Assembly: GCA_000146465.1 (NCBI GenBank)
Contig: CP001947.1
Reading direction: 5' to 3' (one strand)
Length of the DNA stretch: 64,000 bases
Positions 14,502 through 64,000 of this stretch are shown piece by piece; position 1 is the first letter of the stretch, and every line of letters begins with the position of its first letter. A model generated the notes under the pieces. That model had not been told where the DNA came from. It was given only the letters and a program-made list of their open reading frames with translations, and ran no database searches. The position numbers and the translations under genes were made by a program.

Positions 14502-14524
14502 GAAAAATTTGCAGCCCCAGGAAA
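14502..14524 (+). promoter_or_regulatory. AAATTT-like plus CCC-like upstream motif of RPL5 (GAAAAATTTGCAGCCCCAGGAAA directly before ATG)
   Basis: Read in sequence. The same module occurs upstream of RPL19, RPL14, RPS18 and RPL36 in this window. Matches the transcription signals described for microsporidian highly expressed genes. Confidence 0.5.
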
Positions 14525-15583: not shown

Positions 15584-15673
15584 TTTCTTTTCTCTCGGGA
15601 AGTCTCGGAATGTCTTTTGTCCCAAAGGAAAATGGCCATTGAACCATAGTAAATCAAAACAAAACAATCCCCT

Positions 15674-17821: not shown

Positions 17822-17876
17822 AATAATAAATGGTTGTATTTAGCTGTTGAAGCCTAGGATTGGTTTTGGTAAAAAG

Positions 17877-20800
17877 ATGGGGAAGGCAGTCCCCATGGGA
17901 TTTGAGTCCACGGGGGACCTTGGATATACTGACTATTTTGAGCGGTTAGGAACGGTTGTTGGGAGAAGTGACGAGTTAGTGGTAAGGAGGGTGATGGAGG
18001 TGCTGTGTGGAGATGTAAGCTGTAAGCAGGAGATTGTTGAGGAGGTTATTGGAAAAAGCTTAGCGAGGGAAGACTTTGAAGAGATGGTGAAGCTAACAGA
18101 AAGATTCCTCAACAGAGATACAAAGAAGATTGACTTTGAAGATGTTGAGCTATTTGATGTTTTATTTACTCTTCGAGAGAAGAAGAGGCTCCTTGAGATT
18201 ATAAGGAAAAGCACGGATCTTGAAAAGGATCTCCTTAGGGCTCTTGGGGGCCGGAAGATGTATTTTATGAGATACATACTCGACAACAAAAAGATGTTTG
18301 AACATTTTCTTGGCTATCAACTGTTTCCAGATACAAGAAGGGAGATACAGAAACTGATGAGGAGCGAAGGAGGTCCTCCAGCCTTTATCAAGTACATAGA
18401 CAGCGATGTACTGAGTCTTATGAAGGGGAGCAAGGTGATTGATTTGGAAAAGACATCAGATGCCAGCGGTACACATATGATAAGAGGGGAGTATCCTACA
18501 GGATCAAGTGTAAGGTACGAAGATGGAGCCAAGATTGTTTTTGTTCCAGGGCAAAAGGTGGATGTTGAGTTTGACGGAGAGCCTCCGGAAAATGTAAAGA
18601 GGCTCTTTGGAAGGAACTTTGTGTTCAACTATGTCCAAAGTGTAGTCCAGAGCTCTGTGCTGAAAGGAGATGGGAATGTTCTTGTGTGTGCACCTACGGG
18701 GAGTGGAAAGACAGTTATAGGAATGATGTGTATTCTCAAGGAGATTGAAGCAAGAAAGAAGGTGCGGGTTGGATACATTGCTCCCATGAAAGCACTGGCA
18801 AGGGAGATATGCAAGACCATTGGAAAAGTGTTTTCAAAACATGAGGTTTCTGTTGTAGAACACACTTCGGATATCTACTCTGGATATAGGCGTCTTGAGC
18901 AGGCAGGGGTGATAGTATCCACACCGGAGAAGTTTGATATTTTGACAAGAAACACGGACCTCCGCTTCGACCTGGTGATTATTGACGAGATCCACATTAT
19001 TGGGGATTCAAGGGGTGCGACAATAGAAGCCATTGTGGCAAGAATGGCCATGCAAAAGAAATGCAGGATTGTTGGGCTCAGTGCAACTCTTCCTAATTAC
19101 ATGGATGTCGGGACATTTATTGGATGCAGGGATTCGGACATATTCCACTTTGGGCCAGAATTTCGAAAAAACGCAATAGACTACGAATTGATAAACGTTG
19201 GAATGAAGGAAAGGGAAATGGGAGTGGTAATAGAAAAGACGTTGGAGAATCTGGAGTTAGATAAGCCGGTGATTGTGTTTGTACACTCCAGGAGCGAAAC
19301 TCTTGAGGTTGCAAGTGAAATAAGAAGGTATATGGAAAAGACTAGTGATTTGGAAGTGGATGTGAGTGCAGGAGTCCGAGAGCTTCTGAAGTACAGAGTC
19401 GGAATTCATCATGCTGGACTGGACAAGAAGACAAGACAAACAGTTGAAAATCTGTATCGAGATGGAAAAATAGATGTGATGGTGTGCACAGCTACGCTTG
19501 CATGGGGAGTGAATCTCCCTGGAAAGACTGTGATAGTTAAGGGGACCGAAGTGTATGATACTTCTTGCGGATGGAAGGCTATAAAGCAGATCGAGATGCT
19601 CCAGATGTTTGGAAGAGCCGGAAGGTTTGGCGATGGCCGGTGCAAAGGAATACTGGTATCGAGCAAAGACAACGAATTTCTTATTCAACGGAGTATAGAT
19701 TCTAGACTACTTCCTGGATTGTGTGATTGCCTCAATGCAGAGATAGTAAGAGGAATGAGGAGATTTGAGGAGATGGTGGACTGGTTCAAGCATACCTTTT
19801 ACTATACAAGACTGGTGAAAATGAATAGGGAGCCTGGGAAGATGGTTAAAAGCCTTGTGTATAGTGCTCTGAAGCTTTTGGAAGGAGCAGGACTCATTGT
19901 GCTGGAACCCGATATACACCCCACAGCTGTTGGAGAAGTAGCATCTAGATATTACATCTACTATAAGGATGCAAAGAGGCTGTTTGATGGCCTTTCTCAA
20001 AACATGTTGGAATCGTCTTTACTGCAAATCCTAGAGGGAACAAGGGAATTCTCTGATCTAAATGGTAACGAGAAGGAGATGGAGTCCCTCAAGGATCTTG
20101 TGCCTATCCCCACTGAATCCATATTTGGGCTACAGGTACAGTGTTATATAGCCAACCGAATGAACTCAGCACCTCTCTCTCAGAATCTCTGCAGGGTGTT
20201 CAGGGCGCTGTTTGAGATTGGAATGAGAAAGAAGCTTGGGATCGCAAAGACAATACTGGGGTGGTGTAAAGCAGCAGAGCATAGGATATTTCCGTACCAG
20301 ACACCTTTGAGGCATTTTACAGACGATGTGGAAGTCCTGAGGAGTCTGGAGATGAAGGAAATTCCTTTTAAGGTGTTGGAGGTACTGGGCAAGGATGGGC
20401 TAGATGAGATAGGAATTGGAGGGAGCATCATAGTTGAAGCCCTAAAATATGTTCCCAAATTCAATATCTCTCCGAGTATTCGAGTTGCAGCACCTGGAAA
20501 CTATGTCATAAGCATTGGAATCGAAAAAACGTTCTGCGACAGCAAGATCGAAAGTAATATGTACCATCTTTTCATAACCGATTCAAAAGAGTCGAGTCTG
20601 GTTGTGTGTGACACAGTAATATTCCAAAAGGAGTGTGAGTATGTATGCCAGAATTATGGGGTATGCACAGACTCTCCATTTCTGAACATCTACCTTCTCT
20701 CTAGTCATTATCTGTGTCCCATACATCCTGTAACATTAGATCTGAGGAGTAGTATGGAATCTTCTCCTTCGGTATTTAGTAGAGTGTGGAGGTCTTTTAT

Positions 20801-22319
20801 GGAAAAGAAAGCATCTGGGATGAACAATTGCGTCAAACTGGATCTATTCCACAATGAAATTTCCACAGAAGTGGTGGTTGTGCCCAGCTATGCTGAGAAA
20901 AGAAGGTTAATGCTTCTGGGCTACAGGGCATACACTTATGAGGAGTTTGTTTCTTGGAGGGTTATTTCTGGCCCTGTTACTATTGTGGAGGTGGACGGGA
21001 TTATTTCGAACCACCTTATAGAAGCTTGCATGGCACATTGTATCATAAGAAATATTCGGATGGTTCTGGTAGGACTTCCATTTACAACGGGTGGAGGAAT
21101 TGAATCGATCGGAAAGATTGAAAAGAACCTGAAGGAAATAGGTGTAGAAGTTTGTGAGTCTTACTCTCCTACATACCATGGCCAGCTCTTTGACTTCAAG
21201 ATTAGGATAATCGAAAATATCCGTGGGGTGGATGTGGAGGAGAGCTCATGTCTTATCATTTGCTCTACAATGAAGATGATTGGATATTTCAAAAAGTTCT
21301 TTGAAGATGCAAGGATTGCTTCAGAGTATACAGGAATCCATAAGGGTGTGTACTTCGCTACAAAGAGAGTGGTTGATCTATGGGTAGATAGGAGATGGAG
21401 TCCCGAAGTATCCCAAGTCCACATTGTCGGGACAGACTACTACGACCACGAGACCTCATCTTATGTCGATTACTCTCTTGCGGATGTTAAGAGGTATTCC
21501 CTCCTTGGTAAAAAGGCAGTTCTTTACGTGAGGGAAAGTAAGAAGGCGCTATACTTTGGAAATGGAACTGTTCCTTTGCACTATTGCTCGTCTGAAAGGA
21601 AAGAGCTCTATTTGTATCCATACTGGTTGGGATGTAAACCAGAGAAGAGCCAAGGAAGTTCTCTATTTGTTAAGGACCAAGAACTAACGCGATATGGGAT
21701 GATACTGTGTAAGTATTGTGTTGGAATCGACACTGTTGAAATGTTCATTGAAAAGGCCAAGGATAAGATGGGGTTGAAGAGCATTCGGGCTCTTGTGTGT
21801 GGGGCAGGGGAGCTTGTGCTTGATGTTGATCCAGATGAGTTGGAAGCATTATCTAAGACAGGGGTGGATCTTTCGTTTGGAAAGGCATATGGGATGACTT
21901 CATACGTACTGGATATGAGTGAAGGAGACGAAAGGATTCTTCAGCAGTATGCTGGGAGTATACTTCCGGTGGTGAATAGGTTATACTTGTGTCTCGTGGA
22001 AGTTTCATTAGAAAAAATGTATCTGAAAACAGCATTCAACACCATGTTTGGACTCCAGAATATTATGAGTGTCTTTATCGAGGACAAGGACAAGTTCTAC
22101 AATGCAAAGCTTTGCGGGGGAGCTGTGCTCATTGAAGTTTTGTCCGTCCCTCGAAGCCCGATGGGATGGGTTGTGTTCTTTCTATTTGACGGATCGAAAG
22201 AGTCCGAGATTATTTATATCGAATGCCCAGGAACATACTCCACATCTTGGAACCACAAGATCTGCTATGTGATGAGCGACAGCTACCCTGGCTTTGAGAA
22301 GATCGAGGACAAGGCATAA
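17877..22319 (+). CDS. BRR2: Brr2/Ski2-like DExH-box RNA helicase with Sec63 domains, most likely the U5 snRNP helicase Brr2 in reduced form
   Basis: Motifs VCAPTGSGKT (I), DEIHIIGDSRG (II), SATLPN (III), QMFGRAGR (VI). The second cassette has no Walker A. The track ORF starts at TTG 17847; first ATG is at 17877. About 1480 aa against roughly 2100 aa in other eukaryotes. Confidence 0.7.
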   Translation: MGKAVPMGFESTGDLGYTDYFERLGTVVGRSDELVVRRVMEVLCGDVSCKQEIVEEVIGKSLAREDFEEMVKLTERFLNRDTKKIDFEDVELFDVLFTLREKKRLLEIIRKSTDLEKDLLRALGGRKMYFMRYILDNKKMFEHFLGYQLFPDTRREIQKLMRSEGGPPAFIKYIDSDVLSLMKGSKVIDLEKTSDASGTHMIRGEYPTGSSVRYEDGAKIVFVPGQKVDVEFDGEPPENVKRLFGRNFVFNYVQSVVQSSVLKGDGNVLVCAPTGSGKTVIGMMCILKEIEARKKVRVGYIAPMKALAREICKTIGKVFSKHEVSVVEHTSDIYSGYRRLEQAGVIVSTPEKFDILTRNTDLRFDLVIIDEIHIIGDSRGATIEAIVARMAMQKKCRIVGLSATLPNYMDVGTFIGCRDSDIFHFGPEFRKNAIDYELINVGMKEREMGVVIEKTLENLELDKPVIVFVHSRSETLEVASEIRRYMEKTSDLEVDVSAGVRELLKYRVGIHHAGLDKKTRQTVENLYRDGKIDVMVCTATLAWGVNLPGKTVIVKGTEVYDTSCGWKAIKQIEMLQMFGRAGRFGDGRCKGILVSSKDNEFLIQRSIDSRLLPGLCDCLNAEIVRGMRRFEEMVDWFKHTFYYTRLVKMNREPGKMVKSLVYSALKLLEGAGLIVLEPDIHPTAVGEVASRYYIYYKDAKRLFDGLSQNMLESSLLQILEGTREFSDLNGNEKEMESLKDLVPIPTESIFGLQVQCYIANRMNSAPLSQNLCRVFRALFEIGMRKKLGIAKTILGWCKAAEHRIFPYQTPLRHFTDDVEVLRSLEMKEIPFKVLEVLGKDGLDEIGIGGSIIVEALKYVPKFNISPSIRVAAPGNYVISIGIEKTFCDSKIESNMYHLFITDSKESSLVVCDTVIFQKECEYVCQNYGVCTDSPFLNIYLLSSHYLCPIHPVTLDLRSSMESSPSVFSRVWRSFMEKKASGMNNCVKLDLFHNEISTEVVVVPSYAEKRRLMLLGYRAYTYEEFVSWRVISGPVTIVEVDGIISNHLIEACMAHCIIRNIRMVLVGLPFTTGGGIESIGKIEKNLKEIGVEVCESYSPTYHGQLFDFKIRIIENIRGVDVEESSCLIICSTMKMIGYFKKFFEDARIASEYTGIHKGVYFATKRVVDLWVDRRWSPEVSQVHIVGTDYYDHETSSYVDYSLADVKRYSLLGKKAVLYVRESKKALYFGNGTVPLHYCSSERKELYLYPYWLGCKPEKSQGSSLFVKDQELTRYGMILCKYCVGIDTVEMFIEKAKDKMGLKSIRALVCGAGELVLDVDPDELEALSKTGVDLSFGKAYGMTSYVLDMSEGDERILQQYAGSILPVVNRLYLCLVEVSLEKMYLKTAFNTMFGLQNIMSVFIEDKDKFYNAKLCGGAVLIEVLSVPRSPMGWVVFFLFDGSKESEIIYIECPGTYSTSWNHKICYVMSDSYPGFEKIEDKA

Positions 22320-37994: not shown

Positions 37995-38300
37995 TCATGC
38001 CATCCAGAATCTTCCATACACTGCTTTCCCACACACATTACATTCATCCCCATCCTGATACTTCTTTATTGCACACAAAGAGCAAAAGCTATGCCCGCAT
38101 TCTGTGAGGACTCTTTCCTCAAATGTCTTCTTGCATATTCCGCACAAAAGATCATCATCTGAAATCATCCCCATCTCTGAAAATCCTATTGATCTTTCAT
38201 GCAAATATTTGCAGGAATCTCCATATCCGCAGTATCCCGTTTCTCTAAATGGCTTGCAGATGATTTTGTGTGTCTCTACCATTTCATTATCTTTGGCCAT
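37995..38300 (-). CDS. CWC24: CCCH zinc finger plus RING finger protein, Cwc24/RNF113-like splicing factor
   Basis: CKPFRETGYCGYGDSCKYLH (C3H1) followed by the RING CGICKKTFEERVLTECGHSFCSLCAIKKYQDGDECNVCGK. First ATG at 38300 (track TTG at 38309). Confidence 0.7.
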   Translation of the reverse strand: MAKDNEMVETHKIICKPFRETGYCGYGDSCKYLHERSIGFSEMGMISDDDLLCGICKKTFEERVLTECGHSFCSLCAIKKYQDGDECNVCGKAVYGRFWMA

Positions 38301-39523: not shown

Positions 39524-40068
39524 TCAAGACGAGACTGCTCTGTTCGACAAGTTAAGTGCCTCTGCCTGCTCGGCAAGCTCTCGGGCTCTTTGCTCATCGG
39601 CCTTTCTCTTGATTATGCTATCTTTCATGTGGAATCTGTGCTTGAAAAGATGGCCCTTTGCCTGCTTGTAAAACACTCGGAAGTCTTCCTTGGTGATCTC
39701 TCCATTGGCCCTCATCTCCTTCAGCATCTTCCTCATTGCACGAATCTTCTTCATCCATAGCTCCTTCCTTGGCATTCTTGCATTGGCCGTACCAAAGCGC
39801 TTTCCAGGCCCCATGTGCCTCCCCTTCTTCTTGGCTGCCAGGCGCTTTCGGAGTCGTCCTCTGCTGGTGTGCTTGTCCTGCTTCATAATAATCACATTGT
39901 CTTGTATCAGCTGCCTAATCTGATCCCGAGTGGTTGCTCCGTTGAGCCTCTCAATTTCGTTGTTATCCAACCAAAGCTTCTTCTTCCCACATCCTAGGAT
40001 GTCTGCTGCCAAACGCCTGACTCTCTCCTCGTTCGACCTTCAAATTAGAAATGATCCATCACTTACAT
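39524..40068 (-). CDS. RPL19: 60S ribosomal protein L19e; exon 1 is AT at 40068-40067, a 29-nt intron spans 40066-40038, and exon 2 is 40037-39524
   Basis: The ORF-track protein (TTG start) is L19e but lacks the conserved N-terminus. AAAATGTAAGTG on the minus strand gives AT|GTAAGT...TTTGAAG|G. Splicing completes ATG and yields MSNEERVRRLAADILGCGKKKLWLD, matching the L19e N-terminus. Confidence 0.8.
40038..40066 (-). other. Spliceosomal intron of RPL19, 29 nt, sitting inside the start codon: GTAAGTGATGGATCATTTCTAATTTGAAG
   Basis: GTAAGT donor begins at the G of ATG, CTAATTT branch-like element, AG acceptor, frame restored. Confidence 0.7.
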
Positions 40069-40089
40069 TTTTAGGGTGCAAATTTTTCC
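40069..40089 (-). promoter_or_regulatory. AAATTT/CCC upstream module of RPL19 (GGAAAAATTTGCACCCTAAAA before ATG)
   Basis: Read in sequence. Nearly identical to the RPL14 module at 53015-53034. Confidence 0.5.
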
Positions 40090-42263: not shown

Positions 42264-42282
42264 TTAAGGGATTAAATTTTTC
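42264..42282 (-). promoter_or_regulatory. AAATTT/CCC upstream module of RPS18 (GAAAAATTTAATCCCTTAA before ATG)
   Basis: Read in sequence. Confidence 0.45.
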
Positions 42283-42358
42283 ACGGTTCAAAATGAAGGC
42301 AGACTTTCAAGATGGAAAGACAACAGGACGTAGTAACAGATAAAACCAAAAGTATACT

Positions 42359-42643
42359 TTATTCCTCCAGAAGCATCTTTGTCAACTTCTTCATCCTCTT
42401 TCCTGCACGCTTGTGAGACCCCAATCTCTTTCGGAGAATCCTCTGTGCCTTGCTATTGTTCTTTGCCTCAATAAGCGAAATAACTTTCTTCTCAAGTGGA
42501 GAATAACCGCATAACTCCTCTGCAACTGAGGCTGCAAACATGCGTATCTTTCCAGACTCCTCGCTGGGCTTCTTGGCTTCTCTCTTCACATCGGGCCTCT
42601 TTACTGGATAACGTACTCGAACTTTCTTGAGAGCGTTCTTCAT
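42359..42643 (-). CDS. RPL36: 60S ribosomal protein L36e
   Basis: The ORF track gives a 197-aa ORF. Only the C-terminal 94 aa, from the ATG at 42643 (CAT at 42641-42643 confirmed), match L36e (..SPLEKKVISLIEAKNNSKAQRILRKRLGSHKRAGKRMKKL). Confidence 0.8.
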   Translation of the reverse strand: MKNALKKVRVRYPVKRPDVKREAKKPSEESGKIRMFAASVAEELCGYSPLEKKVISLIEAKNNSKAQRILRKRLGSHKRAGKRMKKLTKMLLEE

Positions 42644-42647
42644 TGCA

Positions 42648-42664
42648 GGGCCGAGAAAAATTTT
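42648..42664 (-). promoter_or_regulatory. AAATTT/CCC upstream module of RPL36 (AAAATTTTTCTCGGCCCTGCA before ATG)
   Basis: Read in sequence. Confidence 0.45.
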
Positions 42665-42695
42665 AATTCTACAAGGATGCAGTCCTTGCAAACCA

Positions 42696-45287
42696 ATGCT
42701 TATTGAGAGGTTCAAAGAAATAAGAAACAAGATATATGAGGATATCCATGCAGCCTCTGAGACAGACATAAGATTTATGAGGGATGCTCTGGGTCTACAA
42801 GACATGGCATATGGAAGGATCAAGACGTATTCTGCCGAGGACAGCAAGGTTCTGGCGCTTTTTACATTGAAGTACAATGTTGCAGTTCTCTTGGAGTTTA
42901 TTTCCCGAAACGGAGTCGAGCTTGGGAGCGATATATGTATGGCGCTTTGCAATGCATTGTTTGAGGAGATTCCTCAGGCATCTCCTGAATGTTCCCTGGA
43001 GATCGAGGATATAAAAGCACGAACGGACGAGGTGATTGTAGACATCCTGTGTAGCATTGGAGAGGGGATGCATGTTGAGAAGATCAAGTCATATTTGAGC
43101 TTGCAGGAGATTCCTGACGGGGTTAGCGTCAATCTTGCAGTGGTGTTTACAGCTCCATCCTGGAAGTCGTATGACCTCCGTGTGATTAATGAATTGGTTC
43201 TTGGGCCTGTTTTGGTGGAGCTGCTGAGAAGTTTTAAGGAATCTCTCCGGCCGCAAATAAAGGAAAGAATATTGGACTCTTGCAAGAAGAGACTTAGGAA
43301 TGAAAGAGATCGGTCGATTATTTACCAAATATTCTACGAGCTTAACACAGGGAAGGACATTAAGATGTTTGAAATTGAAGAAGACGAGAAAGAGGAGGCA
43401 TATGTTGGATTTATATACTCTCTAATGGTTGATGAAGAAAGTTGCTTAAAGGGATATGAGGTTTTGTCAAAGGCAGGTCTTTTTAACGACCTAAGAAAGG
43501 CTCTTGAAATGATAAATGTTCTAAGCCAGGCAGAATATAAAAGAATTAGGCCTGAAGATGAAAAGCTCATCTATCATCTTATGCAAGTGATTGAGAGGCT
43601 TGTATCTTCAGACTGGCATGGCCTTGGCTTTGTAAGGCTGTACTTCATGAGATTTGTCGAGCTGTTTCTTAACACTCTTGTAGGGCAAATTTCTCTAAGG
43701 ATAAAAGGGCAGATATACGAGATCCTATCTTCATTCATGAGAGATGGAGACTGTAAGGAAACAATCTGCGAGTTTATGAGAGGAGTTGGGATATTCAACA
43801 AAGAGGCCATCCATGCTGATTTCGAGAAAGAACTTGAGAGTAAGAACTTCTCTATGGCTCCGAGTTTCCTCCGGTTTTGTACGTTTCTTGGAAATGAGGA
43901 ATGTATCAGATTTGCCATGTACGCACTTAAAAGCGAGGATCCATCAACAGTCACCCGGTGCTTTGACGTCATCGAAAGGTTTGTGGACAAGAAAAACACA
44001 GAGGGGGGGAGTAGCAGTGAGTTTATTGTTTCTCAGCTCTCCTTGATGTCTCAACATATTCGAGTAGCAATGCTAAACAACTCACAAGTCACCAACAGGA
44101 TTTTGGAATTCCAGCTGAGCACGGGCATTGTGATTGGAGATGTGTCGATAATCAATGTGATCATAAATACACCGAACCCAAGGTTCTTTGAGTATGTAAG
44201 GCTTTTTGAGGACTTCTCATTCTTCATGAATGAAAACTTCCTTGAAAGGCTTTCTGAAGATGAAGAAGAAGGCTTCAAATATCTCTGTGAGGTGACTGCT
44301 AACAACCATGAAGCATGCAAGTTTGTGATGAACAATGAAGATTGGTTCAATGCTTATGTCAAAAACAATCCTTGTGTTCAAGAAGCAGCCATTAGGATAT
44401 ACGAGAACCTGGTTGATTATGACATCGAGAATGTGGAAGTCAGCTTTGACAGAGGGTTTATCCTTCCAGACATACCACATCGGTCAGTATTCTCGATTCT
44501 TAGCAAGTTGATTCTTTATTCGGTTTATACAAGAAAGACTTCATACTCAAGATATATCACAGACAAAGACTACAGCTTGGATAGCTCAAATATCAATGAG
44601 TACTGTTTGTATATCAAATGCAGAATAGTTGTAGGAGACAATGTTGAGGATAGGATCAAATATCTTATGAAACAGTATACAGGAATAGAAGATCTACTCG
44701 GATATTATGAGGTTTCCACTGGGATATCACTGAACATCTCCTCCTCAAAGAACCTCTTGGTAAACATAGGAAAGAAGGATACAAGCATGTTTATCAACAT
44801 GTTTAGCAATGCTAGTAACTTCGAGAAGTTTCTTTTATTCTTTTTCATTGGAGAAATTGATGCAGAGGAAGGCAAGGCAATTGAGAAAATAGTCAAAGAG
44901 GAAATCACAAGAATAATGGTATCCCAGTCCTCGAGCACATCGGAGAAAATGATTCTGAGGCAATGCTTGATAACACTCTTGTCTCTTAACAACATAGACT
45001 CGATTGTGAGGTTGATAGGCGAATATGACGACACCGATCTACTTCTAAAAGCCAACATAAGAAATCTTCTGTGCGGAGGGTCATACTTCAATAGCTCTTT
45101 GGTCATGAAAGGCCCATTGGAGCTGCAAGTCTATGCTGTTCTCCTCCTTTATTACAAATCAGTCTGGGACTTAGCTGCTCTGAAGGATTGGATCCTGTAT
45201 CTTAGGAGAGAGTGTAAGGATAACGACGACCTGGAATATCTTATAAGCGATATCAAGAGCAAAAACATACGGATTGAGCTTGAGTAA
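42696..45287 (+). CDS. Large hypothetical protein, about 864 aa, probably alpha-helical-repeat, with no family assignment
   Basis: The track ORF begins at TTG 42627, overlapping the RPL36 start. First ATG is at 42696. Long uninterrupted frame with neighbour-like composition. Confidence 0.45.
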   Translation: MLIERFKEIRNKIYEDIHAASETDIRFMRDALGLQDMAYGRIKTYSAEDSKVLALFTLKYNVAVLLEFISRNGVELGSDICMALCNALFEEIPQASPECSLEIEDIKARTDEVIVDILCSIGEGMHVEKIKSYLSLQEIPDGVSVNLAVVFTAPSWKSYDLRVINELVLGPVLVELLRSFKESLRPQIKERILDSCKKRLRNERDRSIIYQIFYELNTGKDIKMFEIEEDEKEEAYVGFIYSLMVDEESCLKGYEVLSKAGLFNDLRKALEMINVLSQAEYKRIRPEDEKLIYHLMQVIERLVSSDWHGLGFVRLYFMRFVELFLNTLVGQISLRIKGQIYEILSSFMRDGDCKETICEFMRGVGIFNKEAIHADFEKELESKNFSMAPSFLRFCTFLGNEECIRFAMYALKSEDPSTVTRCFDVIERFVDKKNTEGGSSSEFIVSQLSLMSQHIRVAMLNNSQVTNRILEFQLSTGIVIGDVSIINVIINTPNPRFFEYVRLFEDFSFFMNENFLERLSEDEEEGFKYLCEVTANNHEACKFVMNNEDWFNAYVKNNPCVQEAAIRIYENLVDYDIENVEVSFDRGFILPDIPHRSVFSILSKLILYSVYTRKTSYSRYITDKDYSLDSSNINEYCLYIKCRIVVGDNVEDRIKYLMKQYTGIEDLLGYYEVSTGISLNISSSKNLLVNIGKKDTSMFINMFSNASNFEKFLLFFFIGEIDAEEGKAIEKIVKEEITRIMVSQSSSTSEKMILRQCLITLLSLNNIDSIVRLIGEYDDTDLLLKANIRNLLCGGSYFNSSLVMKGPLELQVYAVLLLYYKSVWDLAALKDWILYLRRECKDNDDLEYLISDIKSKNIRIELE

Positions 45288-45721: not shown

Positions 45722-45937
45722 ATGGACAACACCCTGTACACAGCCTTTATAGGAAAGGCTGTTAAGGTCAAGATTTGCGACGGCTCTGAGTTTAGAGGAA
45801 CATCGGCAGCAATAGATGCATATCTCAACATATCCTTGGAGTCTGTATTCTACCTTCAGAAAGGCCAAGAGCCCAGATATTATTCCTCTCTATTCATCAA
45901 AGGATCGTATATCGACCACATAGCATTGGATGTATGA
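45722..45937 (+). CDS. Sm-like protein (LSm/SmF-type Sm fold)
   Basis: 71 aa. Sm1/Sm2 pattern FIGKAVKVKICDGSEFRGTSAAIDAYLNISLE...FIKGSYIDHIA. Confidence 0.7.
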   Translation: MDNTLYTAFIGKAVKVKICDGSEFRGTSAAIDAYLNISLESVFYLQKGQEPRYYSSLFIKGSYIDHIALDV

Positions 45938-52663: not shown

Positions 52664-53014
52664 TCATGCCAGTCCCTTTTCCTTTAGGAGCTCGTCCTCA
52701 ACTCTTTTCCTCAGCTTCATCTGGAATCTCTCGAAATCATTGGTTGTATCCTCCTCACTAATGCTTTCTGGAATGAGCTTTCCTATCTCTTCTGGACTAA
52801 GATCCTTAATGTCAAACGACTCATCCTCAAGGTGGAGATTAGATATAGAGCACATTTCCCTCTCTCCATCCTTCCTCTGGAGAAGTACAAAGGTTGCATC
52901 GATGATGCCAACAATTATGCCATATGTTTTTCTTTTTTCTTTGAGTGCAGGTGTCACAATCCTTCCCAGCCTTACTGTCTTCTAAAGTTAGCCAAAAAGA
53001 AGCTCACTTACCAT
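52664..53014 (-). CDS. RPL14: 60S ribosomal protein L14e; exon 1 is ATG at 53014-53012, a 30-nt intron spans 53011-52982, and exon 2 is 52981-52664
   Basis: The ORF-track 97-aa ORF begins at GTG with no early ATG. Its sequence (YGIIVGIIDATFVLLQ...NDFERFQMKLRKR) matches L14e. Upstream, ATGGTAAGTGAGC...GGCTAACTTTAG|AAG restores the frame to give MKTVRLGRIVTPALKEK..., matching the L14e N-terminus (FKRFVEIGRVALV). Confidence 0.8.
52982..53011 (-). other. Spliceosomal intron of RPL14, 30 nt: GTAAGTGAGCTTCTTTTTGGCTAACTTTAG
   Basis: GTAAGT donor directly after ATG, CTAAC branch-like element, AG acceptor, frame preserved. Confidence 0.75.
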
Positions 53015-53034
53015 TTTTAGGGCAAATTTTTGTG
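53015..53034 (-). promoter_or_regulatory. AAATTT/CCC upstream module of RPL14 (CACAAAAATTTGCCCTAAAA before ATG)
   Basis: Read in sequence. Almost identical to the RPL19 module. Confidence 0.5.
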
Positions 53035-59822: not shown

Positions 59823-60404
59823 GCTGTCTTTTGTGCTTCTTTTTTTCTTCCTAGACTTTTTCATCCACATCTCTAGTGCATTGCTTCTGTATCTGCCCTG
59901 CACATCTTCATCCAACGAGTTCCACATCTTAATGAACATACGAACGTTTTCTTCTGGAGACACATTTATGTCGCCACAGATGTCGAAGAGTTCGTTTACA
60001 AAGAAAAGATATCCTGAACACTCCCATCGCTGTATATCCCGTATTTTAACATATTTTCTTAGCTTCTTTATCGTGTTTGTATCATTGACTAAATTGCCGT
60101 CGTCACAGCCATCCAACTCATTGGCTTCCTCAAGATCTTTATTGCATTTTTCCACATACATATTCCTCTCCTCGTCCGGCATTTCCTTCCATACAGCCAT
60201 CATATTCAAGGCAGTATCGACACAACTTGTGTATTTGTAATTATTACTTTGGAAAAAGTCCCTGGCAAAGACCGTGAATGGAGATCTCTGCTTGGTAGGC
60301 ATTGAATACAAGGATTCAAAAAATTTCATCTCGGGGGTATGTATCTTCGAAAAATACACCAAAGGAATTAGATAGTACAGTAGAGGCCAATAAATAGAGT
60401 CCAT
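59781..60404 (-). CDS. HMG-box protein (two divergent HMG boxes, basic tail). Its 3' end overlaps tRNA-Arg in antisense.
   Basis: Box-like segments KQRSPFTVFARDFF...MMAVWKEMPDEERNMY and KKLRKYVKIRD...IKMWNSLDEDVQGRY, with tail KKSRKKKRSTKD. The last 14 codons are the reverse complement of the tRNA. An alternative start ATG lies at 60329. Confidence 0.5.
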   Translation of the reverse strand: MDSIYWPLLYYLIPLVYFSKIHTPEMKFFESLYSMPTKQRSPFTVFARDFFQSNNYKYTSCVDTALNMMAVWKEMPDEERNMYVEKCNKDLEEANELDGCDDGNLVNDTNTIKKLRKYVKIRDIQRWECSGYLFFVNELFDICGDINVSPEENVRMFIKMWNSLDEDVQGRYRSNALEMWMKKSRKKKRSTKDSRPQRDSNPQPSAP

Positions 60405-61966: not shown

Positions 61967-62890
61967 TTAATGGGAGCAGAAGGGCTTTCTGCTGAGATTG
62001 TATATTAGTATCCCCACAATACTTATGGCTAATCCTGCATAGTTCAAACTGCTTAGGGTGATATCTTTTGTTACTATTGCATAAAAAATAATTATCAGCT
62101 CCTTAACAATCCCTGCAACACTTAGAAACACAACACCGGTTTCCGAAACAAGCATGAACTCTGCACATAGTAGCGTAAATGATAGGACCCCGCAAAGAGA
62201 AATATACCCAAAATTTCGTAGGGCAGCATCAAACGTGTTGAAAAACCTAGATGTTGCTATCTCCATGAGACCTTCAACATGCAAAGAAATTAAGAGGAGG
62301 AGGAACGATATGGGAAGGCAAAGGTCCCTTATGGTTACAAGAATTCCTTCCTTCCGGACTTCCTGATTTCTAATAAGGTATTGGACAAACGCCCATCGGA
62401 ACCCTGCCATCAAAGAAGCAAACGAGATGGTTCCGAATCCAATAATATCAAAGCTTGTGTTTTTTATTGACGTGAGAAACACTCCCACGCCAATGGTGAA
62501 TATCGTCAGAAAAAACGTTATCGATGGTTTCTCGATCCCAAGTGCAAATCCAAATAACAGAATAAACACCGGAGAAGAAGACTTCACCATTGTGTAGAAT
62601 GCAAGGGTTGCCGACCTTAGAGATATGGATGAAAGGCCTATGTCTGTGGCTCCTGCAAGGGCACATGGAAACGAAGGCCCAAAGTAATTAGGCTTTGGAG
62701 CTTTTTCCTTCTGAAACCTCAGGGCTGTGGATGCTCCGAAAAAATGGATCAGGTTCTGCATGGACGCCTTGAACAAGGGAAAGGAGAAATTGTATGTCTT
62801 TTTGGAAAGCAGAAACGATGTTAGATATCCCAGGCTTAATGACAGAACATAATACATGAGCACTAATCCCAGTACTCTGATTCTGTTCAT
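61967..62890 (-). CDS. Drug/metabolite-transporter-superfamily membrane transporter, nucleotide-sugar/triose-phosphate transporter-like
   Basis: 307 aa with about 9-10 TM helices and a TPT/NST-like C-terminal region (KELIIIFYAIVTKDITLSSLNYAGLAISIVGILIYN). Confidence 0.5.
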   Translation of the reverse strand: MNRIRVLGLVLMYYVLSLSLGYLTSFLLSKKTYNFSFPLFKASMQNLIHFFGASTALRFQKEKAPKPNYFGPSFPCALAGATDIGLSSISLRSATLAFYTMVKSSSPVFILLFGFALGIEKPSITFFLTIFTIGVGVFLTSIKNTSFDIIGFGTISFASLMAGFRWAFVQYLIRNQEVRKEGILVTIRDLCLPISFLLLLISLHVEGLMEIATSRFFNTFDAALRNFGYISLCGVLSFTLLCAEFMLVSETGVVFLSVAGIVKELIIIFYAIVTKDITLSSLNYAGLAISIVGILIYNLSRKPFCSH

Positions 62891-62990
62891 TCCTCTTGAG
62901 TGTATTTTCTTTGGAGAGTCTTTTCTTCACAATGTTTCAAAGCCCCATCCAATCACATTGTTGTGTCTGGAACAAATGAATTCTGGTTTC

Positions 62991-62998
62991 TATAAATA
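62991..62998 (+). promoter_or_regulatory. TATA box (TATAAATA) about 25 nt upstream of the U2 snRNA 5' end
   Basis: Read in sequence; the position fits snRNA-type promoters. Confidence 0.45.
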
Positions 62999-63017
62999 TG
63001 TTTTTTTTCCTAGGCCC

Positions 63018-63210
63018 TACCTCTCAAGCCAATCGGCTTTGATCAAGTGTAGTATCTGTTCTTGCCAGTGTAAGAACTGGCATTATCCGTAAGGATAAAT
63101 TCATCGAATTTTTGGATGGCAGGGTGATGTAGAGGAGCTTGAGCGCTTGCGTTTCGGCCAATCTACTTGAGGTCTGCAGGCTTCTGGGCTGTAGAGCCTA
63201 GGAAAAGCCG
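63018..63210 (+). ncRNA. U2: U2 spliceosomal snRNA
   Basis: GATCAAGTGTAGTATCTGTTCTT at 63041-63063 is identical to the conserved U2 5' region, including the GUAGUA branch-point-interacting sequence. Stem I is AAGCC/AATC/GGCTT. Stem IIa is GTTCTTGCCAG..TAAGAAC..TGGC. Canonical Sm site AATTTTTGG at 63107-63115. 3' stem-loops, then a T7 run at 63211-63217. The 5' and 3' ends are approximate. Confidence 0.8.
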
Positions 63211-63268
63211 TTTTTTTGTAATGTTTTCTGTTCTATTTCTTTTATCCAAGGATCCCCAACTCAAAGAA

Positions 63269-64000
63269 ATGAAGTATGCGGAGATCATCATAGGGCCTCC
63301 TGGAAGCGGGAAGTCTACCTATGTCATGAATAAAAAGACATGGCTCTCCCATAGAAGTCCATACACAATAAATCTTGATCCGGGGAATTCCAACTCCAAG
63401 GAGTTTGACTATTCGATATGCTCCATCTCGTCGTCTTCGGTATATCAAGAAAAACATGATGTTGGGCCTAACATGTCCACAAAATGCATTTTAGAGGAAT
63501 TTGTTACTCGTATCGATGAGTTCTTCCGGGAGAACATTGAAGATACAGACCACTACGTCCTAATAGATTTTCCAGGACAGGTGGAATTTTTTATATCCAG
63601 CGATATTCCCAACAGAATCATCAGATATCTTAAAAGAAATGGATATTCGGTTGTGGTTTTGAATCTTATCGACCTGGTATTCTTCTCGAACAGTCACTCG
63701 CTGGTTTCATCGTATCTAATCTCGACATTGTGCCTCTGTCTTCTTGAGTCGGCCCAGATCAACATCATCAGCAAATGCGACAATTGGAAAAGTCTTGAGA
63801 TGGAGTATCCGTTGGAAGAGATTGCATCGTTGGAATGTCTAGAGGAGATTCCGAGGAAGAAAAAGTTGTATAGTGAGATGATCTCTTTTGTCCTCAACCA
63901 AGGACTGCTACTGTATGAAATCCTGGACTATGACAATCCAGACTCTGTTCTAAATCTTCAGGTTGGCATAGACAGAGCAAGCGGGTTGTTTTTTGAAGAC
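63269..64000 (+). CDS. GPN-loop GTPase (Npa3/XAB1/GPN family), 5' part; the gene continues beyond the window end
   Basis: Hand-translated: MKYAEIIIGPPGSGKSTY (P-loop), LIDFPGQVEFF (G3, typical of GPN GTPases), and 244 codons open to the window end. Absent from the ORF track, probably because no stop lies inside the window. Confidence 0.7.
   Translation, partial: MKYAEIIIGPPGSGKSTYVMNKKTWLSHRSPYTINLDPGNSNSKEFDYSICSISSSSVYQEKHDVGPNMSTKCILEEFVTRIDEFFRENIEDTDHYVLIDFPGQVEFFISSDIPNRIIRYLKRNGYSVVVLNLIDLVFFSNSHSLVSSYLISTLCLCLLESAQINIISKCDNWKSLEMEYPLEEIASLECLEEIPRKKKLYSEMISFVLNQGLLLYEILDYDNPDSVLNLQVGIDRASGLFFED

Follow-up and report, generated by a model that had tools for sequence, protein, structure and literature searches.

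A U2 snRNA gene in the spacer between divergent TPT and GPN genes on chromosome VI of Encephalitozoon intestinalis

The question raised by this locus is what the 378-nt spacer between two divergent protein genes encodes: a small protein, the remains of an RNA gene, or a functional spliceosomal RNA. The spacer belongs to the window, by which we mean the entire stretch of 64,000 nt (64 kb) analyzed here, which is part of chromosome VI of the microsporidian parasite E. intestinalis ATCC 50506. It extends from the start of a TPT-family sugar-phosphate transporter gene at 62890 (Eint_061240; 61967 to 62890 on the (−) strand; 100% identity to the E. intestinalis ATCC 50506 protein) to the ATG at 63269 of a GPN-loop GTPase gene that runs off the window (PF03029; 63269 to 64000 on the (+) strand; Pfam E-value 2.6e-32), in agreement with the length and divergent arrangement given in the initial annotation. 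A search of the 64 kb with the complete set of 4227 Rfam families gave a match to RF00004 (U2) at 63017 to 63209 on the (+) strand, which scored 83.5 bits (gathering score, 46; E-value 5.6e-15) and spanned model positions 1 to 192, i.e., it was not truncated. The initial annotation had called a U2 snRNA gene here and had named an Rfam score below the threshold as the result that would speak against it; the score lies well above that threshold, and nine syntenic orthologues and the covariation of the stems (see below) point the same way. We put the probability that 63017 to 63209 (+) is a functional U2 snRNA gene of E. intestinalis, apparently single copy at this locus, at about 97%. Beyond U2 and two tRNA genes, nothing in the 64-kb window was matched at the gathering thresholds or in a permissive scan (E ≤ 0.5), with the limit that such scans are blind to divergent snoRNAs and other ncRNAs are possible in the window despite this null result; U6 was absent from the 64 kb. 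The first T-run after the tRNA-Trp and tRNA-Arg(ACG) genes (flanks at 15584 to 15600 and 59823 to 59850) is T4, which in several relatives is the sole one, and the tRNA-Arg gene keeps its syntenic position in every relative that we looked at.

The elements of a U2 RNA can be followed along the match from its 5′ end. Stem-loop I (UCAAGCC AAUC GGCUUUGA), present in both the Rfam alignment and the minimum-free-energy fold, occupies 63024 to 63042 and leads into the single-stranded catalytic/recognition region GAUCAAGUGUAGUAUCUGUUCUU at 63041 to 63063. This region is identical to the Rfam consensus at 23 of 23 nt, which confirms the exact match to the conserved U2 5′ region, GUAGUA included, that had been noted from the letters. 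It includes the U2/U6 helix I sequence, the U2 side of which is that of the Rfam consensus, and the branch-point recognition sequence GUAGUA (63049 to 63054). Both the Rfam alignment and the minimum-free-energy fold leave GUAGUA unpaired, and none of the ten species deviates from it. Downstream follow stem-loop IIa (63063 to 63082; seven pairs, from the fold and covariation) and stem-loop IIb (UUAUCC GUAA GGAUAA; 63083 to 63098, from the minimum-free-energy fold and the Rfam alignment), and then the predicted Sm-protein binding site AAUUUUUGG, read directly at 63107 to 63115. We defined an Sm site as RAU4-6GR between stem IIb and stem III, and AAUUUUUGG has this form. The Rfam alignment leaves the site single-stranded between these two stems, whereas the single-sequence energy fold instead puts a few weak pairs across it; in all six Encephalitozoon-clade sequences it is kept as (A)AUUUYUGG. 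The 3′ part consists of two GC-rich hairpins, an extended stem-loop III (63119 to 63177, from independent folding and compensatory pairs; apex GCGCUUGCG at 63143 to 63151) and a terminal stem-loop IV (63179 to 63209), which folds in every orthologue despite sequence divergence. No Encephalitozoon-clade sequence departs from the stem III apex CGCUUGCG, whose counterpart in the Rfam consensus is GCUUGC.

The 5′ half thus carries stem I, the U6-pairing region, and GUAGUA. If the elements work as they do in other U2 RNAs, the Sm site would nucleate the Sm ring, and stems IIa and IIb, the Sm site, and the two 3′ stem-loops would together form the canonical U2 snRNP scaffold. Comparison across species argues that the structure is maintained. 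In stem IIa, 93% of the alignment cells are paired, with compensatory double changes across species in 3 of the 7 pairs; in stem I, 91% are paired over ten species, and the changes are one-sided G-U. Taken together, stems I and IIa are 92% paired over ten species, compared with 21 to 47% in slid controls, in which the pairing partner was moved by 1 to 3 columns. In a six-species alignment, half of the predicted pairs (22 of 44) have changed by compensation, most of them in stems III and IV, and the two-hairpin 3′ architecture was recovered in each of six divergent orthologues folded independently. The formal covariation count covered stems I and IIa, the MAFFT alignment having lost register at stem IIb. 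The whole-RNA fold is modestly more stable than shuffles (z = −2.3), as is usual for snRNAs. Since the stems change by compensation and the same fold is reached in each species, we read the locus as a functional structured RNA and not as a pseudogene or a coding region.

The position of the gene is conserved as well. U2 lies in the GPN/TPT spacer of nine other microsporidian genomes, pointing to the GPN gene, with Rfam scores of 65.7 to 80.7 bits. These nine comparison loci comprise five from the Encephalitozoon clade (78 to 86% TPT identity) and four from more distant microsporidia, among them Vairimorpha ceranae (L008), V. necatrix (L009), and Nosema granulosis (L010). The GPN and TPT genes are divergent neighbors in all nine, and the GPN GTPase gene adjoins U2 in all 10 genomes. 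A 31-nt block, AUCGGCUUUGAUCAAGUGUAGUAUCUGUUCU, of which the 63041 to 63063 region is part, is invariant in 10 of 10 microsporidia, and alignment of the whole spacer shows that only the TATA box, the CCC motif, the U2 body, and the T-run are conserved, the remainder being full of indels. A decaying U2 pseudogene is difficult to reconcile with a locus that is syntenic in ten species across the Encephalitozoon/Nosema split, in which all functional elements are intact and invariant and the stems change by compensation; U2 pseudogenes are common in large genomes, but the genomes compared here are extremely compact, with little dispensable DNA left in them. The related possibility of another snRNA of the same clan, i.e., U12, draws on the fact that U2 and U12 are placed in one Rfam clan, yet U2 remains the best family in Rfam clan competition and GUAGUA is the branch-recognition sequence of U2, not of U12. 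We therefore regard a pseudogene or a U12 gene as very improbable.

Even less probable, to the point of being negligible, is that ORF 62856-63092 is translated into a 78-aa protein and that the region resembles U2 by accident. An ATG-to-stop ORF of 78 codons is indeed present, but it overlaps the TPT start on the opposite strand, and a Pfam search with its product gave no match. In each of the five Encephalitozoon-clade relatives, the frame runs into stop codons before it reaches the U2 part, and the upstream part aligns with gaps that are irregular in both length and position. The only peptide segment that appears conserved is the one translated from invariant U2 nucleotides, and an E-value of 5.6e-15 to the U2 family would be left to coincidence. 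We rejected the ORF as protein coding on the grounds of the missing Pfam match and the frame broken in all relatives, and thus share the view, already taken in the initial annotation, that it is spurious.

U2 of the genus Encephalitozoon has already been described, and the present gene is an ordinary, known finding. Rfam 12.0 already contained Encephalitozoon U2, and Belkorchia et al. 2017 count it among eight "previously described" ncRNAs in a study that proceeded by synteny over E. cuniculi, E. intestinalis, E. hellem, and E. romaleae and validated E. cuniculi ncRNAs, including U2, by 5′/3′ RACE (PMC5499648). The U2 snRNA was also handled as an annotated E. cuniculi gene in the transcriptome study of Grisdale et al. 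2013 (PMC3629993), and Whelan et al. 2018 modeled branch-point pairing from an alignment of microsporidian U2 snRNAs. The E. cuniculi U2 belongs to the same family and genus, has a TATA-like box and a CCC start motif, and is of similar size. The Encephalitozoon-clade orthologue L004 (67.9 bits; GPN/TPT spacer) has the same invariant 5′ half and Sm site as the E. intestinalis gene, and in both a GCUUGC apex caps stem III and a T-run follows the terminal hairpin. Compared with these, the E. intestinalis gene shows only species-level sequence divergence in the 3′ half, namely in stems III and IV, which are kept by compensatory changes.

Human and yeast U2, as represented by the RF00004 consensus, share the 23-nt identity in the U6-pairing/branch-recognition region, stems I, IIa, and IIb, the Sm site, and the GCUUGC apex, and the E. 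intestinalis RNA is like human U2 in overall length (~190 nt). In contrast, its first ~10 nt and the sequence of stem-loop IV diverge from the consensus, and we take the stem IV loop to be devoid of the human U2B″-type loop sequence. The human U2 promoter is composed of PSE and DSE elements, whereas that of E. intestinalis is a simple TATA box plus CCC motif, with a T-run after the 3′ hairpin. The value of the locus is mainly one of annotation: if U2 is missing from the chromosome record, it deserves an entry there, and the 78-aa ORF that overlaps it is best left uncalled. It also provides a clean example of an snRNA gene packed between two protein genes in a minimal eukaryotic genome.

The U2 genes of V. 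necatrix, V. ceranae, and N. granulosis occupy the same place upstream of the GPN gene and share the identical 31-nt core, stems I, IIa, and IIb, and the terminal hairpin with T-run, but they have no counterpart of the AUUUUUG Sm site that E. intestinalis retains in the interval from stem IIb to stem III. The loci in which AUUUUUG is absent from this interval are L007 (3346 to 3530), L008 (3326 to 3505), L009 (3113 to 3296), and L010 (3260 to 3439), on the (−) strand. The Nosema/Vairimorpha U2 has U-runs at two places only, within stem III on its 3′ strand and downstream of the terminal hairpin. Because the internal Sm site is missing there, Sm-ring assembly may differ in the Nosema/Vairimorpha clade. 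The distance between the U2 end and the GPN ATG also varies: it is 51 nt in E. intestinalis and ~23 nt in L004 (2717 to 2740), compared with only 10 to 15 nt in the Nosema/Vairimorpha loci (L007 to L010). With gaps this short, the GPN promoter must overlap the U2 3′ hairpin and T-run, or else the GPN mRNA must arise from read-through.

Transcription of the E. intestinalis gene would start from a simple promoter. A TATA box, TATAAATA, is located at 62991 to 62998, ~26 to 28 nt upstream of the RNA 5′ end, and a CCC motif marking the putative transcription start region at 63015 to 63017, both read directly on the (+) strand. A TATAAAT-like box is found at the equivalent position in 9 of the 10 orthologous loci, L004 having only AATAAACA, and the CCC motif is invariant in the six Encephalitozoon-clade sequences and present in 10 of 10 loci. 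The combination of TATAAATA with CCC 12 to 22 nt later occurs a single time in the 64 kb, at U2. In E. cuniculi, all 18 ncRNA genes with RACE-mapped ends have a TATA-like box and a CCC/GGG motif, the latter close to the mapped start sites (PMC5499648). By analogy, the U2 start site in E. intestinalis would be expected in the CCC region, giving, with the TATA box, an RNA of about 193 to 200 nt. The exact ends are likely to be 63017 to 63019 at the 5′ side and between 63209 and 63217 at the 3′ side, judging from the sequence.

A run of seven T residues (63211 to 63217 (+), read directly), the putative terminator of the initial annotation, stands directly after the terminal hairpin. Like the Sm site, the downstream stem-loops, and the TATA box, it is present at the position claimed for it, and a T4 to T7 run is found at the equivalent place in 10 of 10 species; a naive estimate puts the chance of such a run in the six Encephalitozoon spacers at ~2e-5, a figure that ignores shared ancestry. 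The proposed function is less secure than the run itself. U2 contains an internal T5 at 63109 to 63113, within the Sm site, as do five of the six Encephalitozoon-clade U2 sequences, and three of the four Nosema-clade sequences contain internal runs of T6 to T7. In comparison, most Encephalitozoon-clade loci have just a T4 after their tRNA genes, which suggests that T4 may be sufficient to stop Pol III in Encephalitozoon. A Pol III gene should hold no internal T-run as long as those terminating the tRNA genes, and U2, with T5 versus T4, does hold one. The internal T5 and the T4-only tRNA flanks thus make the role of a Pol III-type terminator unlikely for T7, and a terminator function in general has low-to-moderate support. 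The hairpin and T-run may take part in 3′-end formation.

These runs also bear on the polymerase. The U2 gene is most likely transcribed by Pol II, as are other Sm-class snRNAs, of which the canonical Sm site is an established hallmark. Alternatively, a genuine U2 could be transcribed from its TATA-only promoter by Pol III, or by a merged machinery, with the hairpin and T-run acting as a Pol III terminator, and U2 is in fact a Pol III transcript in trypanosomatids. The T4 to T7 run directly after the terminal hairpin in ten species is what such a scheme would call for, and the absence of a canonical internal Sm site from the Nosema/Vairimorpha U2 would be compatible with it. So would the promoter, given that TATA plus CCC is the same arrangement as that of the Pol III-type ncRNAs (U6, RNase P, and SRP) in Encephalitozoon and that shared polymerase factors were proposed by Belkorchia et al. 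2017 (PMC5499648). However, with T4 appearing to suffice after the tRNA genes of the same loci in most Encephalitozoon-clade genomes, the internal T5 (5/6 Encephalitozoon) and T6 to T7 (3/4 Nosema-clade) should truncate the transcript. Moreover, the T-rich 3′ flank of the Nosema-clade genes lies 10 to 15 nt from the GPN ATG and may be kept as part of the GPN promoter. We thus find Pol III transcription of U2 unlikely and retain Pol II as the polymerase.

A broader proposal has a similarly low probability in our estimation, namely, that the hairpin and T-run could be a genuine polymerase-independent or Pol III-like termination device of a shared, simplified TATA-plus-CCC system, doubling as the GPN promoter region, with U2 and GPN fused head to tail since before the Encephalitozoon/Nosema split. 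If this were true, microsporidian U2 biogenesis would be fundamentally unlike the Pol II/Sm-class pathway of other fungi. In any case, the T-run and the U2-GPN linkage offer small handles on transcription initiation and termination in a system where all polymerases seem to use TATA plus CCC, a question raised by Belkorchia et al. 2017. NNS-type Pol II terminator motifs (GUAA/UCUU) can be seen by eye downstream of U2 in each Encephalitozoon-clade flank; these 4-mers are too frequent in T-rich flanks to count, and we set them aside. Literature searches on the trimethylguanosine cap in microsporidia returned nothing relevant.

The RNA would find its substrates among the few mini-introns of the genome, whose UAAY branch sites GUAGUA would pair with, leaving the branch adenosine bulged. 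Three such introns are present in the window, in the ribosomal-protein genes for uL18/L5 (14528 to 14552, (+) strand, 25 nt), eL19 (40038 to 40066, (−) strand, 29 nt), and eL14 (52982 to 53011, (−) strand, 30 nt). The first two hosts were identified by Pfam, and the eL14 host protein matches chain 7QEP_M4 of the E. cuniculi ribosome (E-value 4.7e-53). The pattern GTAAGT...TAAYTT...AG has 3 sites in the window, compared with 0.29 expected by chance. All three introns are at the start codon, the initiator codon of eL19 being split as AT|G; they begin with GTAAGTG and have a UAAY candidate branch A 6 to 7 nt before the intron end. In the canonical register, with the branch A bulged, GUAGUA forms 5 pairs with the eL14 intron (GCUA[A]C), 4 with the eL19 intron (CUA[A]U), and 3 with the L5 intron (UA[A]U), the last rising to 6 if shifted by one GUA repeat. 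This modest pairing is compatible with U2 function, but off-target registers score equally, so that the number of pairs alone does not discriminate.

Genes for the splicing machinery are found in the window as well. A 1490-aa helicase (17847 to 22319) combines DEAD, Helicase_C, and Sec63 domains with a weak SNRNP200 wHTH match in Pfam and is probably of the Brr2 type, an assignment that does not formally separate it from Slh1/ASCC3. A 101-aa protein (37995 to 38300) has the CCCH-plus-RING architecture of Cwc24 according to Pfam, and a 71-aa protein (45722 to 45937) contains an LSM domain (LSM/Sm fold). The initial annotation had reported Brr2-like, Cwc24-like, and Sm-like genes together with three intron-bearing ribosomal-protein genes, and all of them were recovered. 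It had further described the window as a joint sample of the spliceosome and its substrates; this holds in the sense that these genes and introns are in the window, but we found no evidence that they are functionally clustered with U2. The E. intestinalis genome measures roughly 2.3 Mb. Published numbers for such a genome are about 2000 genes, about 37 introns, and 24 to 37 splicing proteins (PMC3629993, PMC5499648, PMC10158995). Against this scale, 3 proteins and 3 introns among roughly 60 genes are not clearly above expectation, and we rejected functional clustering; with about one gene per kb in so compact a genome, the co-occurrence of U2 with splicing genes is unremarkable.

Two minor observations concern other parts of the window. 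The largest stretch without an ATG-initiated ORF in a greedy tiling covers 432 nt (42264 to 42695) and gave no Rfam match at E ≤ 0.5; it could represent the N-terminal portion of the 886-aa ORF at 42627 to 45287 or of the (−) strand ORF at 42359 to 42952, or it may hold a divergent snoRNA. The second is the 9-mer AAAATTTGC, which occurs exactly three times in the 64 kb, at 14504 to 14512 (+), 40078 to 40086 (−), and 53022 to 53030 (−). This count is not above chance (14 of 100 shuffles), and the placement is the same in 3 of 3 cases: each copy precedes the start codon of a different intron-bearing ribosomal-protein gene, with its own first base 20 to 21 nt before that of the codon, and is followed by CCC. 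The combination of AAAATTTGC and CCC resembles an AAATTT-like plus CCC promoter signal reported for Encephalitozoon.
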